Below, in pieces: positions 51,860 to 56,205 of a stretch of 61,899 nt of DNA. Under the pieces are notes generated by a model. That model searched no databases and was not told the origin of the DNA. It was given only the letters and a program-made list of their open reading frames with translations. Source of the stretch: a bacterium. Its GTDB lineage: Bacteria; Patescibacteriota; Patescibacteriia; Patescibacteriales; XYC2-FULL-47-12. Within the stretch, counting starts at the first letter, position 1, and every line of letters begins with the position of its first letter. The position numbers were made by a program, and so were the translations under genes. Where the stretch lies: the NCBI GenBank assembly GCA_030698385.1, contig JAUYLZ010000027.1, positions 1-61,899 on the forward strand. The letters run 5' to 3'.

Positions 51860-51907
51860 TCACGAGTACTCGTGATTGACAAAATTTTTAATATATGACA
51901 TGATAAT
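51860..51907 (+). promoter_or_regulatory. Promoter with abutting 16-bp palindromic operator (radical-SAM cassette)
   Basis: TCACGAGTACTCGTGA (51860-51875) + TTGACA (51876-51881). The -10 is ambiguous: CATGAT at a 17-nt spacer or GATAAT at 20 nt. Confidence 0.55.
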
Positions 51908-52087
51908 TTTAAAATTGCTGTTTACAATTGAATAAAAATCTACGCGGTAGCGACAAGCTGGTAATAACATTACCGTCTGTTCGCTACTGTGTAGCCCATG
52001 GTTGTTTTCTCTTAATTCAAGAGAATAACGTACTGACCCGTTTAGAGCAGGACAGCAACCTAAATCTTTTTTAAGGAGGACCAGTTC

Positions 52088-52327
52088 ATGGCCACTTCAA
52101 AAGAGTCTGAAAGCGCATCCCCGATGCTTTCGGTGGCAGAATTGTTACACGGGGTCTGCTTCGGACTTGAGGGACCCGAAGCTAAAAAAACAATTGCTTC
52201 TTTGACGAAAGTCATCGAGAAGCAATTTCCTTACCTCAAAAAAGCCTTCCGTTTGCTGAAGGCAAAAATATGGTATTTAGTAGTAGAAAGCCAAATAGTA
52301 TTTTTGACATGGAACCTTGAAAATTAA
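52088..52327 (+). CDS. Small protein of unknown function leading the cassette
   Basis: 79-aa ORF with AAGGAGG 8 nt upstream of ATG. The C-terminal 20 codons overlap the direct repeat at 52263-52298. Confidence 0.45.
   Translation: MATSKESESASPMLSVAELLHGVCFGLEGPEAKKTIASLTKVIEKQFPYLKKAFRLLKAKIWYLVVESQIVFLTWNLEN
52263..52298. repeat. Left copy of a roughly 32-bp direct repeat
   Basis: CAAAAATATGGTATTTAGTAGTAG..CAAATAG matches 57724-57755, apart from one extra T and a 5-nt gap. Confidence 0.8.
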
Positions 52328-52364
52328 TAAAACCGGACGGACGGATAGGGGAAAGGAGTAAAAG

Positions 52365-53162
52365 ATGGAAACGTCATGGAGAGAAAAATGTAGGCGTGTT
52401 TATGGAGGCGGTAGCGTCCTAGACACAAAGATTGATGTTCATTCTGTGTATAGTAGCATCCCGACTAACATATTCGGCGCCATAGTTGCAACACTGGGGA
52501 TACCGAATGATTTGTCGATTTTGGATGTTGGTTGTGGTCGAGGAGGGTTCCTGTTGTATCTCGAAAGCCTTGGACATCGAGGGCACTTGAGTGGCGTTGA
52601 CCTTGCAGATAATATATCTAGTCAGGTGAAGACCAGAAAAGATATACAATTTTCTGCAGCCGACATCGAGGCGCTACCATTCATTAGTGATACCTTCGAT
52701 GCGGTTACTGCCATCCATATGTTAAGCCATGTCCAGAATTTGGCGCATGGAATGATGGAGATCCAGCGGGTTCTTACCCGTGATGGTCGGTTTGTCGCCA
52801 GTGCGAATTCGCTTCAGTCGTACCCGCATGTTGCGAAATATCGCAAGATGGTCTTCCAAGAATTTGATTGGGGCGAACCGTTGTTTTCAACAACCCGCTT
52901 TAACCTCGAAAACATGAAAGAGATTCTTAACGGGTATTGGAAGCAAGTCAACCTAGTCATTCTTACTGGGGAATTACGAATTCCAGTGAAGCCATTTCTA
53001 CGTTATTTCGCCGCCCATATTGATGTATGGGAAAAGATCCCGACTCTCAATCAGCGCGACGAAATCTTGCGGCTGGTTGCTGAATGGTCTGCACAAGACG
53101 CCATTGACGGCTACATTGTAGAATTGAAACGCGTGGGTATCACTACCTGTGCCAATCACTAG
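52365..53162 (+). CDS. Class I SAM-dependent methyltransferase
   Basis: 265-aa ORF with motif I ILDVGCGRGG and the post-I/II pattern (DAVTAIHML, LTRDGRFV). AAGGAG lies upstream. Confidence 0.8.
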   Translation: METSWREKCRRVYGGGSVLDTKIDVHSVYSSIPTNIFGAIVATLGIPNDLSILDVGCGRGGFLLYLESLGHRGHLSGVDLADNISSQVKTRKDIQFSAADIEALPFISDTFDAVTAIHMLSHVQNLAHGMMEIQRVLTRDGRFVASANSLQSYPHVAKYRKMVFQEFDWGEPLFSTTRFNLENMKEILNGYWKQVNLVILTGELRIPVKPFLRYFAAHIDVWEKIPTLNQRDEILRLVAEWSAQDAIDGYIVELKRVGITTCANH

Positions 53163-53953: not shown

Positions 53954-55185
53954 ACCCTACAAACATCTCAACTATTGCCCGGGTCATAATTGACGTGACG
54001 CGTCGATGTAATTTGAGTTGCTGGTATTGTCATTCCACATCCGGTCCTGAATATCGAGGTCCGGAAATTGATGTTACCCGCATTCCCAACATTTTTGATA
54101 CTGCGGAACAGCTCAAGGTATTTGAAATAACCATCACTGGCGGTGAACCAATTTTGTGGAGAGGGTTACCATTGCTGATGGAAAACTCTCATCGTCTTGA
54201 GTTTACGAAGTTGCAAATCATCACGAACGCAACCTTGATATCGACGGAGATCGTCAAAATCCTACGACGAGCGAATTTGAGTAGGATTTGCGTAAGTTTA
54301 GACGGGGTCGAGCACTTACATGCGAAAAATAGGGGAAAGGGCATGTATGAACAGACGATCGCCGGTATTCAACGGTTACGTGAAGTCGTTGATAACATTA
54401 CGGTTATCTCAGTATTGGACAATTTGAATTGTTCATACTGGTCGGAACTAACCGAAGTGTTGATTAAGGCAGGGGTTAAACAACACCACTTAGCGCCGGT
54501 GTGTTTTTCCGGCAATGCCATGGAACGGTATCGAGGACTTAGCCAACAGCAATTCGCTGAAGTACGCGAGCAAGTTGAAGCCATCTCAAGATCATTGCCC
54601 GATGGGTACTTAGTGGCGTTTAATGATTCCCTCGTAAATGGTCTCCGGTCCCGTTATATGACGTTACAGATATTCACTGAACAGTTTAAAGGTTGGCATA
54701 TCGTTATCCGACCCACTGGTCAGGTGAATACATCTGTCAATGGATGGGGCCGAAGCTGGAGAGCAGTAGCAATGATCGGCGACATAAACCAAGCGCCACT
54801 TTCGCAACTAATACAAGGGTATAGCGCCACGATCAACGAAGCGTTGCGAACCCAATTCTCACACTCAGAGGAAATTCGTCGCAAGTTTCATGTTTCTGCT
54901 ACTCAGGAAGATGTTCTGAGTGATATTACTGATGTTCGGTGCACTGAAACGGGATTCGGTACCGATACTTGTGATGCCCAAATTTCTCGTCAGGCGGATG
55001 AAATAGTGCTGCCAGCGGCTTTGGGCATTAATCTCGACGATCTGAAAATACTTATAGCGGCCAACCCCGACCGTTACAGGTTGCGACGAGAGGATGGCTT
55101 TTGGCTACTCTTCGATACGACAACTTTCAACGTTTGCATTTTGAACAATCAAGAGATATTAGAGGTGAAAGGAGTAAATCCATGA
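53950..55185 (+). CDS. Radical SAM enzyme (unassigned subfamily)
   Basis: Start moved to the ATG that overlaps the upstream stop (ATGA). 411 aa with CNLSCWYC (CxxxCxxC) at residues 19-26 and the GGEP motif ITGGEPILW. No clear SPASM Cys cluster. Confidence 0.8.
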   Translation: MNPTNISTIARVIIDVTRRCNLSCWYCHSTSGPEYRGPEIDVTRIPNIFDTAEQLKVFEITITGGEPILWRGLPLLMENSHRLEFTKLQIITNATLISTEIVKILRRANLSRICVSLDGVEHLHAKNRGKGMYEQTIAGIQRLREVVDNITVISVLDNLNCSYWSELTEVLIKAGVKQHHLAPVCFSGNAMERYRGLSQQQFAEVREQVEAISRSLPDGYLVAFNDSLVNGLRSRYMTLQIFTEQFKGWHIVIRPTGQVNTSVNGWGRSWRAVAMIGDINQAPLSQLIQGYSATINEALRTQFSHSEEIRRKFHVSATQEDVLSDITDVRCTETGFGTDTCDAQISRQADEIVLPAALGINLDDLKILIAANPDRYRLRREDGFWLLFDTTTFNVCILNNQEILEVKGVNP

Positions 55186-56135
55186 AAGTGCTGGTTACGG
55201 GCGGGGTCGGTTTCGTCGGAGTGCATCTTTTGCCCTGGCTAGAACACGACTCTGCGATTGAAAGCGTTGTGATTCTGGATAGCCTGTGTTATACCTCAAT
55301 TCCCTCAGTCCTTCACGGATTGTCTGATAAATTCAAATTTATCAAAGGGGATATTTGCGAGGTTACACGCGTGGCTGATCTAGTATCAACCGTCGATGTA
55401 GTTATCAACCTTGCCGCCCAGACTTTTGTTGATAATGCTATCAACGATAGTCTGCCATTTGTCATGACTAATATTTTTGGATTGGCGTCAATCTTGGAGG
55501 CTATTCGTAAGGATAAGTGTCGGCAGCGGCTGGTTCACATCTCTACCGATGAAGTGTGGGGAGAAGCTTTGGTTGGGAGTTTTAATGAGGAATCTCCCTA
55601 TCATCCGCGCAACCCATATTCGGCGACAAAAGCAGCAGCCGACCACATGATTAGGGCTTATGGATCGACGTATGGTCTCCGGTATAACATCATTCACTTC
55701 CCCAATTTGTATGGGAGATGGCAGTATCCAGAAAAACTCATTCCGGCTACGATTGCTCGGTTGTCGCGCGACGAAAAAGCGCGCATCTACGGCGATGGTC
55801 AGCAAACCCGTACCTGGTTGCACGTCAATGATGCGGTGGACGGATTGTTGCGAGTTTTCCATCACGCGACAATGAGAACCTACACGCTCGGTACGGATGA
55901 TGTGTGGACGAATCTTGATGTAGTTAAACTCATCTGCCGTTTGATGGGAAAAGATGAAACCTCAATTGAATTCGTCGAAGATAGGTTGGGCCATGATCGC
56001 CACTACGTGGTTGATTGTAGTCGGATTTGCCAAGAGCTCAATTGGCGACCGACAATCAAGTTTGAAGTCGGCGTTGCTGATATCATTGCTTGGTTTAAGG
56101 CGCACCAAAGATGGTGGGAGACGGCCCATCAATGA
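55182..56135 (+). CDS. rfbB: NDP-hexose (dTDP-glucose-type) 4,6-dehydratase
   Basis: Start moved to MKVLVTGG, overlapping the upstream stop (ATGA). 317 aa with TGGVGFVG, STDEVWG and YSATKAAADH (YxxxK). Confidence 0.85.
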   Translation: MKVLVTGGVGFVGVHLLPWLEHDSAIESVVILDSLCYTSIPSVLHGLSDKFKFIKGDICEVTRVADLVSTVDVVINLAAQTFVDNAINDSLPFVMTNIFGLASILEAIRKDKCRQRLVHISTDEVWGEALVGSFNEESPYHPRNPYSATKAAADHMIRAYGSTYGLRYNIIHFPNLYGRWQYPEKLIPATIARLSRDEKARIYGDGQQTRTWLHVNDAVDGLLRVFHHATMRTYTLGTDDVWTNLDVVKLICRLMGKDETSIEFVEDRLGHDRHYVVDCSRICQELNWRPTIKFEVGVADIIAWFKAHQRWWETAHQ

Positions 56136-56164
56136 AAACAACTTTGCAAAAAGCAAATGTATCG

Positions 56165-56205
56165 GGGTTCTACAATTAAAAAAAGAGATTGTAGAACCCT
56201 TTTTA
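56165..56205. terminator. Bidirectional rho-independent terminator
   Basis: GGGTTCTACAAT-N11-ATTGTAGAACCC + T-run. Confidence 0.7.

Follow-up and report, generated by a model that had tools for sequence, protein, structure and literature searches.

A four-gene radical SAM module apparently captured by a native locus of a Patescibacteria chromosome, with a probable role in the synthesis of an unusual deoxysugar nucleotide

The contig JAUYLZ010000027.1 of assembly GCA_030698385.1, from a bacterium of the Patescibacteriota (XYC2-FULL-47-12), was analysed over positions 1 to 61,899, and this whole stretch of 61,899 nucleotides is called the window below. Within it lies a row of same-strand genes centred on a radical S-adenosylmethionine (SAM) enzyme and accompanied by an RmlA-like nucleotidyltransferase, an RmlB-like dehydratase and a methyltransferase. 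An earlier note had described these genes, together with a small open reading frame (ORF) at their head, as an operator-controlled five-gene cassette that could make an unusual methylated deoxysugar nucleotide or modify the small protein. The follow-up analysis suggests that the region is a composite transcription unit in which a native left part is joined to a foreign right part, and that the right part probably makes a nucleoside diphosphate (NDP)-activated, and probably dTDP-linked, 6-deoxyhexose derivative, the most likely product being an unusual methylated NDP-6-deoxyhexose. The elements of the unit are given here in window coordinates; L-numbers denote related loci or contigs and P-numbers related proteins.

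51,825-52,330, plus strand: putative native head, made up of the terminator of the upstream gene orf120, a promoter, a leader, an AAGGAGG box and the 79-amino-acid (79-aa) ORF
51825-51854, plus strand: AT-rich hairpin with 14-nt arms followed by a T-run, candidate terminator of orf120
51859-51876, no strand assigned: 18-bp perfect palindrome ATCACGAGTACTCGTGAT, abutting the -35 box
51876-51904, plus strand: sigma-70-type promoter TTGACA-17-CATGAT, 10/12 matches, with a TG upstream
51910-52087, plus strand: structured 5' leader RNA of ~175 nt, with copies in L331 (113-294) and L332 (1525-1680)
52088-56135, plus strand: five same-strand ORFs, in the order 79-aa ORF, methyltransferase, nucleotidyltransferase, radical SAM enzyme, dehydratase
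52088-52327, plus strand: 79-aa ORF, a ~60-aa N-terminal domain of a native family with an unrelated 18-aa tail
~52,330-56,140, plus strand: putative horizontally acquired, promoterless segment of four coding sequences that bring their own ribosome-binding sites (AAGGAG)
52365-53162, plus strand: class I SAM-dependent methyltransferase, 265 aa (Methyltransf_11, E 1.7e-18; below every NCBIfam cut-off)
53180-53953, plus strand: RmlA-like sugar-1-phosphate nucleotidyltransferase, 257 aa, short form (PF00483, NTP_transferase, E 5e-33)
53950-55185, plus strand: radical SAM enzyme, 411 aa (PF04055, E 2.1e-23; CNLSCWYC)
55182-56135, plus strand: RmlB-like NDP-hexose 4,6-dehydratase, 317 aa (TIGR01181, 342.8 bits vs a cut-off of 365; STDEVWG, YSATK)
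56165-56205, plus strand: intrinsic terminator, a 14-bp stem and T-run, overlapping the stop codon of the convergent gene

All five ORFs and the sequence motifs by which they had been recognised were found again, and the Pfam and NCBIfam assignments agree with them. The closest solved relative of the nucleotidyltransferase is a glucose-1-phosphate thymidylyltransferase (3hl3/4ecm, E 5e-38) and the dehydratase matches the dTDP-glucose 4,6-dehydratase 2hun (E 2e-76); since both enzymes are closest to solved dTDP-glucose enzymes, they fit a sugar pathway. The dehydratase homologs of related cassettes keep STDEV(W/F)G and YxxxK, and GxxGxxG is kept in 8/10. The ATGA stop/start overlaps that had been noticed between the nucleotidyltransferase and radical SAM genes (53950-53953) and between the radical SAM and dehydratase genes (55182-55185) proved real, as did the terminator, in which the stem is followed by TTTTTATTTT and which lies in a segment (56136-56215) that folds at -23.5 kcal/mol with z = -4.8. 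The start of the radical SAM gene at 53950, and not at the upstream ATG at 53887, is backed by the N-termini of 40 homologs.

The radical SAM enzyme has the CxxxCxxC motif with its three cysteines invariant across 40 family members, as is characteristic of the superfamily, and its radical SAM core spans residues 16-157, the C-terminal half being family-specific. One extra cysteine only is conserved, Cys185 (in HHLxPVCFxG), which is clade-specific and missing in clade 2 of the family. Many arginine, lysine and histidine residues are invariant in the family alignment, which would suit a nucleotide-diphosphate substrate. Profile and sequence searches of the PDB align residues 9-210 only, the best matches being SkfB, BlsE, PqqE and MoaA. 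An AlphaFold2 model of the protein, with a predicted local distance difference test (pLDDT) score of 90.6, was compared with solved structures using Foldseek, and gave TM scores of ~0.5 alike for SkfB, SuiB, anSME, BlsE, DesII, viperin and MoaA; equal scores for so many families indicate a match at the level of the superfamily only. Every radical SAM model of NCBIfam scored far under its cut-off, the family being without a specific curated model there, and the ~63 relatives that were retrieved at ~40-64% identity from 5.8 billion proteins carry the name "radical SAM protein" or other generic labels only. Among the profile checks that the earlier note had proposed, PF04055 was matched, PF13186 and PF05402 were not, viperin stayed under its cut-off and DesII was undetected. 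By these comparisons the enzyme is a member of the superfamily and falls in none of the characterised subfamilies tested.

Neighbourhoods of related genes were gathered by four routes and then searched by tblastn with the window's own proteins. Relatives of the module are found in Nocardia, Pseudonocardiaceae, other Patescibacteria and metagenomes, and practically all loci with room for it hold the triad of nucleotidyltransferase, radical SAM and dehydratase genes; L001 and L002 hold the radical SAM and dehydratase genes only. The methyltransferase is co-conserved with the module in 17/22 loci, standing before the nucleotidyltransferase in the window, L081, L084/L085, L248, L249 and L250, and following the dehydratase in L082, L251 and ten genomes of Nocardia or Pseudonocardiaceae. 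Of the five-gene order whose conservation in other genomes the earlier note had proposed to test, four genes recur, in two orders, and the 79-aa ORF does not. The triad also keeps its 4-nt overlaps in L081, L082 and L083, the last being the Nocardia brasiliensis cassette (CP170507). According to a clustering of the larger neighbours, a GT2 glycosyltransferase of the polysaccharide type adjoins the module in 12/22 loci, being its most frequent extra neighbour and a fifth frequent member, so the earlier statement that no glycosyltransferase accompanies these genes holds only in the window. Neither the window cassette nor any of the homologous loci annotated with Pfam contains RmlC or RmlD, and an aminotransferase is absent from the window and from the clade-1 loci L081-L083 and L084 (L086 carries one). 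Clade 2, at ~30% identity, is without the triad, yet its genes stand in sugar contexts, namely with a DegT aminotransferase and NDK in Micromonospora (L166), with a dehydratase in L257, and with a second radical SAM gene and two GT2 genes in L167; these surroundings, too, suggest that the enzymes fit a sugar pathway. A description of the gene set was not found in the literature searches made. Judged by this distribution, the module is a conserved, mobile unit.

In the pathway that is proposed here, the RmlA-like enzyme would activate a hexose-1-phosphate and the RmlB-like enzyme would form an NDP-4-keto-6-deoxyhexose, both assignments being drawn from strong homology and intact catalytic motifs. 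Homology likewise shows a SAM-dependent methylation and a step initiated by radical SAM chemistry, whereas the substrates and the order of these two are proposals. The radical SAM enzyme would stand in for RmlC/RmlD or for other tailoring enzymes, acting on the NDP-4-keto-6-deoxyhexose or on a precursor of it; abstraction of a hydrogen atom beside the 4-keto group could then lead to epimerisation, deoxygenation or rearrangement, with the clade-specific Cys185 as a candidate hydrogen-atom donor, and the class I methyltransferase would methylate the product. Translational coupling suggests that the radical SAM protein, the dehydratase and the nucleotidyltransferase form a complex. In most of the other genomes the adjoining WbbL-like GT2 enzyme would pass the sugar to an acceptor in the cell envelope; here the transferase would have to lie elsewhere or, more speculatively, the adjacent Pol-beta-type nucleotidyltransferase might serve. 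Among the closest known systems is the pathway of dTDP-L-rhamnose (RmlABCD with a WbbL-type GT2), which has the same first two steps, carried out by an RmlA-like nucleotidyltransferase and by an RmlB-like 4,6-dehydratase with TDE and YxxxK motifs, and which resembles the module in its compact, translationally coupled genes and in the GT2 gene that adjoins the module in many of the homologous loci. It differs in its RmlC 3,5-epimerase and RmlD 4-reductase, in whose place the module has a radical SAM enzyme and a class I methyltransferase, and in that the RmlA-like and RmlB-like enzymes of the module, although clear homologs with the catalytic motifs, score below the cut-offs of the rml families (133 vs 320 bits with rmlA_long for the nucleotidyltransferase; for the dehydratase see the list above).

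Several points weigh against this pathway. The reaction given to the radical SAM enzyme is a guess, and the module is without a 4-ketoreductase to finish a transferable sugar. No glycosyltransferase was detected in the 62-kb window by tblastn with GT2 queries from the related loci. All equivalog scores of the nucleotidyltransferase lie far under their cut-offs and do not fix its nucleotide and sugar specificity. The partners of the module in L086, namely PhyH, an HMGL-like gene, an aminotransferase and a HAD hydrolase, hint at small-molecule products, and the C-terminal ~50 aa of the radical SAM protein have a faint, non-significant likeness to the peptide-binding RiPP recognition element (RRE), RiPPs being ribosomally synthesised and post-translationally modified peptides. 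Finally, expression of the module from the host promoter is presumed.

That the four-gene block was horizontally acquired had been suspected from its codon and dinucleotide style as judged by eye, and the calculations support it. The dinucleotide delta* of the cassette is 146, as compared with 57 +/- 24 for 4-kb windows, a value reached by 0/100 non-overlapping windows; by this signature no other 4-kb stretch of the window deviates as strongly. The GC content is 0.46-0.48 in the acquired segment vs 0.29-0.40 in the flanks. Shine-Dalgarno boxes, tabulated gene by gene (that of the nucleotidyltransferase being read directly from the sequence), lie as AAGGAG(G) or AAGGA 6-10 nt upstream of all five starts, including that of the 79-aa ORF, just as the earlier note had stated, and comparable boxes occur in only ~6 of ~60 other ORFs of the window; the host thus appears poor in such boxes, and the cassette stands out. 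In L084 the module has a host-like composition and no Shine-Dalgarno boxes, which suggests that the foreign look of the window copy reflects recent transfer and is not a property of the genes. In a neighbour-joining tree the radical SAM protein of the window pairs with the metagenomic P0002 (L081) and is not nested with the other Patescibacteria copy, a placement that fits independent acquisition. Direct repeats flanking the cassette were not found, nor were integrase or mobility genes among the neighbouring genes scanned, so that the features of an integron gene cassette are lacking there; a tRNA scan gave no match, which speaks against a tRNA-linked island. Elsewhere in the window, ORFs with Shine-Dalgarno-like boxes include 5234-5920, 9841-10281 and 13583-14360, which may be foreign or specially translated. 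A second composition outlier at 30500-34600 (delta* up to 124, GC up to 0.53) encodes a protein with a weak Peptidase_G2-like match and another with a glycine-rich domain, and may be phage-derived or surface-related.

The left part of the unit has a different history, which can be followed from the gene that precedes it.

51414-51776, plus strand: orf120, a coiled-coil-like conserved protein, with a homolog in L332 at 1034-1432

In L331 and in L332 (which has a duplicate, L333), the same order is found as in the window, i.e., an orf120 homolog (47% identical, E 8e-34), a hairpin, a TTGACA promoter, a leader of ~175 nt, an AAGGAGG box and the N-terminal domain of the 79-aa ORF, and in all three contigs (L331-L333) this head occurs without the cassette. 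Homology to L331 and L332 ends near 52270, and is followed by the 18-codon tail, ~40 nt and then the module with its own ribosome-binding site. A word-indexed homology search with the 79-aa ORF matched the query only; an exhaustive HMMER scan of 1.84 billion representative proteins yielded two relatives, P0146 (319 aa, 59% identity over residues 1-59 of the 79-aa ORF) and P0147 (267 aa, 53% identity over residues 4-61), which are unrelated to each other beyond residue 66. In ~30 related cassette loci, tblastn gave no match to the 79-aa ORF, and an all-against-all BLAST of the small ORFs (25-130 aa) of 21 cassette loci returned shadow ORFs inside conserved genes only. The description of a five-gene unit must thus give way to one of four genes, and the suggested modification of the small protein by the cassette loses its basis, the 79-aa ORF being absent from the other cassettes examined and native to a Patescibacteria locus. 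By the same comparisons, the stretch 51,825-52,330 with its promoter, leader, ribosome-binding box and 79-aa ORF is host DNA, and the 79-aa ORF is the truncated or stand-alone "head" of a native gene, neither belonging to the cassette nor serving its radical SAM enzyme as a substrate. Most simply, the downstream "cargo" of the native locus would have been replaced here by the promoterless four-gene module, which would be transcribed from the captured host promoter and leader.

Some further details of this locus were observed. The N-domain ends at a hairpin, GCCTTC-N8-GAAGGC at 52244-52263, where three different continuations start; its counterpart in L332 (~1838-1857) reads CTCTTC-N8-GAAGAG, with two compensatory pairs relative to the window hairpin. 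Recombination or cargo exchange may take place at this hairpin, which also scored as terminator-like on the minus strand. Within orf120, an internal tandem repeat (51547-51586) varies, being 2 x "RWQEND" here and 5 x "EIGGIKT" in L332. The AT-rich hairpin that follows orf120, and is probably its terminator, is also present after the orf120 homolog of L332, with a compensatory A-T to C-G change.

The promoter of the unit had been recognised in the earlier note, with a 16-bp palindrome taken as the operator of the cassette. The promoter stands, and its -35 box and spacing are kept in L331 (-10 TATATT) and L332 (-10 TATGTT), whereas the palindrome is 18 bp long and its role has to be revised. Related copies lie at 6018-6035, upstream of secA, and at 59264-59283, upstream of an ORF at 59366, where the copy is in tandem; the copies end 0-2 nt before a TTGACA- or TTGCTA-like -35 box and have the core CGAGTACTCG in common at three promoters. 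The count of the palindrome in the window was reached by 0/100 shuffles, and the homologous promoters of L331 and L332 lack it. Its presence at two other promoters of the window marks it as a host regulatory motif, and the palindrome is accordingly a promoter-proximal motif of host type, probably the site of a host transcription factor, and not an operator specific to the cassette.

Between the promoter and the 79-aa ORF, the leader has P1, a long stem (CUACGCGGUAGCGA / UCGCUACUGUGUAG), P2, a hairpin that varies, and further downstream the element GACCCGUU...GG; its minimum free energy is -56 kcal/mol (z = -4.55). The P1 stem contains G-U wobbles, and compensatory changes occur in both P1 and P2, the P2 hairpin being fully compensated. 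At the DNA level the leader is 76-78% identical to those of L331 and L332, as compared with 60-66% for the adjacent coding DNA, and because it is more conserved than the neighbouring coding DNA it is regarded as a candidate new cis-regulatory RNA. Rfam 15 gave no match to the leader at the gathering threshold when the window was searched; over 51700-52400 at E <= 10, a single chance-level Tetrahymena snoRNA model (E 6.7) fell on it, and the remaining matches lay inside or beside the 79-aa ORF. Pattern scans of genome contigs revealed no further copies, so that three distinct copies are known, and ten pattern matches in viral contigs were chance matches.

Other products than an envelope sugar were considered. 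The module could serve to make a diffusible small molecule, such as a nucleoside- or sugar-derived antibiotic, an antimetabolite or a defence nucleotide, with the radical SAM enzyme forming or rearranging a C-C or C-O bond on an NDP-sugar in the manner of TunB/TunA or of viperin, which we hold to be unlikely while granting it some weight. Mobile DNA lies by the module in L001 and L002 (coupling-protein-like, replication-relaxation and ArdC-like genes) and in L086 (a coupling protein of a type IV secretion system, prim-pol, transposase and integrase), the latter locus adding the PhyH, HMGL-like, aminotransferase and HAD hydrolase genes already mentioned; NUDIX hydrolases recur nearby (L001, L002, L249, L086 and the window), and the Pol-beta-type nucleotidyltransferase, which is weakly like antibiotic nucleotidyltransferases, adjoins the module here and in L084. 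A radical SAM enzyme paired with a sugar enzyme of the SDR family is also what is seen in AprD4/AprD3, the radical SAM diol dehydratase and SDR reductase of apramycin C3' deoxygenation, and in TunB/TunA, their substrates being aminoglycoside pseudodisaccharides, or UDP-GlcNAc plus uridine. The roles of the tun genes of tunicamycin have been described (PMC6105854), and the cluster likewise joins an SDR (TunA), a radical SAM enzyme (TunB) and a SAM-dependent methyltransferase (TunM), besides pyrophosphatases, in a likeness to the module that is architectural only; TunM is now assigned to immunity and not to biosynthesis (PMC6105854), and TunA is a 5,6-dehydratase, whereas the SDR of the module has full 4,6-dehydratase signatures. 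PADLOC recognised no defence system, its prokaryotic viperin (pVip) matches concern the generic core only, and the enzyme falls below the family threshold (NF038283, 55 bits vs a cut-off of 180). Viral contigs yielded no member of the radical SAM family, conservation alongside the module does not extend to any transporter or resistance gene, and it is a polysaccharide-type GT2 that forms its commonest extra neighbour.

A radical SAM enzyme acting as a peptide or protein maturase, with the NDP-sugar genes decorating the same peptide to give a glycosylated RiPP, and in its strongest form with the 79-aa ORF as the substrate, is very improbable. It would explain why the closest solved cores are those of the RiPP maturases SkfB and SuiB, which with PqqE represent the SPASM/twitch maturases among the best matches to residues 9-210. 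The module enzyme differs from them in having neither SPASM/twitch, nor a significant RRE, nor a precursor gene, and in its unique C-terminal half and sugar-nucleotide context; no auxiliary-cluster cysteine motif was seen in the alignment. Its last ~50 residues form an alpha-beta-beta-beta-alpha mini-domain with the motif YRLRxExGFxLLFD, in which a PqqD-like RRE had been suspected by eye. This idea is kept as a weak alternative only, since the PqqD model of Pfam gave no match at E <= 10 in the C-terminal domains of 20 family members and Foldseek returned nothing significant; when the mini-domain was modelled separately, the best match had E 0.19, with none under 0.1, and the RRE of a lasso-peptide system, TbiB1, followed at E 0.7-0.96 and TM 0.33-0.42. 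No small ORF is conserved by any of the 21 cassettes searched, and the 79-aa ORF, as shown above, belongs to a locus that is found without the cassette. The remaining alternative, an ordinary and already known dTDP-sugar operon of the rml or des type with its radical SAM enzyme in a characterised clade such as that of DesII, deserves the least credence. The RmlA-like and RmlB-like genes are there, and DesII, which acts on a dTDP-4,6-dideoxyhexose in the DesI/DesII steps to dTDP-desosamine, is both among the Foldseek matches and a precedent, being a radical SAM enzyme with, like that of the module, a single [4Fe-4S] cluster motif, which tailors an NDP-6-deoxyhexose provided by RmlA- and RmlB-type enzymes. 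However, its TM of 0.45-0.49 at 14-15% identity is of the generic level reached also by viperin or MoaA, DesII (8hzv) was missing from the PDB matches of phmmer (E <= 0.01) and of the profile search (E <= 0.001), and past the common radical SAM core, with a C-terminal half that differs, no sequence kinship was detectable. A DegT-type aminotransferase, from the family of DesI, the 4-aminotransferase that provides the amino-sugar substrate of DesII, adjoins clade 2 only (L166), the clade of the window having no such partner, and the clade-1 cassettes also have no RmlC or RmlD; the curated radical SAM models and the literature, as described above, likewise give no support to a known operon. The view that this is not a textbook rml or des pathway was therefore upheld.

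Beyond the terminator, the unit is met by a gene of the opposite strand.

56203-57219, minus strand: Pol-beta-type nucleotidyltransferase (NTP_transf_2), 338 aa, with a host-like GC of 0.34 and no Shine-Dalgarno box

L084 (10232-11170) and L085 (4572-5510) encode a homolog of this protein (52% identity) within the operon of the module, 12 nt behind the dehydratase gene. The family occurs in Patescibacteria and Chloroflexi. Three other genome contexts of it are unrelated to the module, and searches brought up neither a LicD-like nor any other informative family or structure for the protein, which is a native neighbour and may be a functional partner of the module or stand there by coincidence. 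Just upstream of the locus, at 49833-51351, are genes for a GH130 phosphorylase and a NUDIX hydrolase. A GH130 gene is also found near the module in L084 (14564-15532), and NUDIX genes of a different subfamily stand beside it in L001 (6312-6797), L002 (7369-7860), L249 (4590-5090) and L086 (6421-6828). A VirD4/TraD-like coupling protein and an AbiEii-type toxin nucleotidyltransferase are encoded elsewhere in the window (24688-27135 and 35359-36036); the radical SAM-dehydratase pair of L001 and L002 likewise has coupling-protein-like genes at its flanks, the likeness being one of description only.

The SecA, SecDF, PriA and type IV pilus genes of the window indicate a bacterial chromosome. Its SecA is 70-71% identical to its two closest relatives, from a Patescibacteria metagenome-assembled genome (MAG) and from a MAG labelled "Gammaproteobacteria", and 51-63% identical to those of many Falkowbacteria and Parcubacteria MAGs. 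Many MAGs named "uncultured Gammaproteobacteria" (from binchicken/SRP co-assemblies; L168, L173, L174, L176 and others) have SecA proteins that are 51-70% identical to that of the window and to Patescibacteria SecA, and their labels are probably wrong.

To our knowledge, the radical SAM enzymes that act on nucleotide sugars are few, DesII being the classic case, and each characterised one that we know of revealed chemistry beyond that of ordinary acid-base sugar enzymes. A wider proposal, which is put forward tentatively, as a possibility more than as an expectation, is that the radical SAM enzyme represents a new family carrying out an RmlC/RmlD-independent radical tailoring of NDP-4-keto-6-deoxyhexoses, that it leads to an undescribed sugar common to Nocardia (including the pathogen N. 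brasiliensis) and the ultra-small Patescibacteria, and that the cassette was captured here at an unrecognised "conserved head plus exchangeable cargo" locus, with its promoter, new leader RNA and 60-aa N-domain and with three continuations from one junction hairpin. A further observation is the native head itself, in which a leader RNA goes together with exchangeable cargo. The module itself is compact and widely transferred, four or five genes centred on a radical SAM enzyme, and as it is present in cultivable Nocardia it can be tested directly. The locus would also show how a reduced genome wires in foreign genes, by placing a promoterless block downstream of a leader RNA and the stump of a gene, under a native promoter. 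If the sugar pathway is correct, it could reveal a new deoxysugar and a new surface glycan in actinomycete pathogens and in Patescibacteria.

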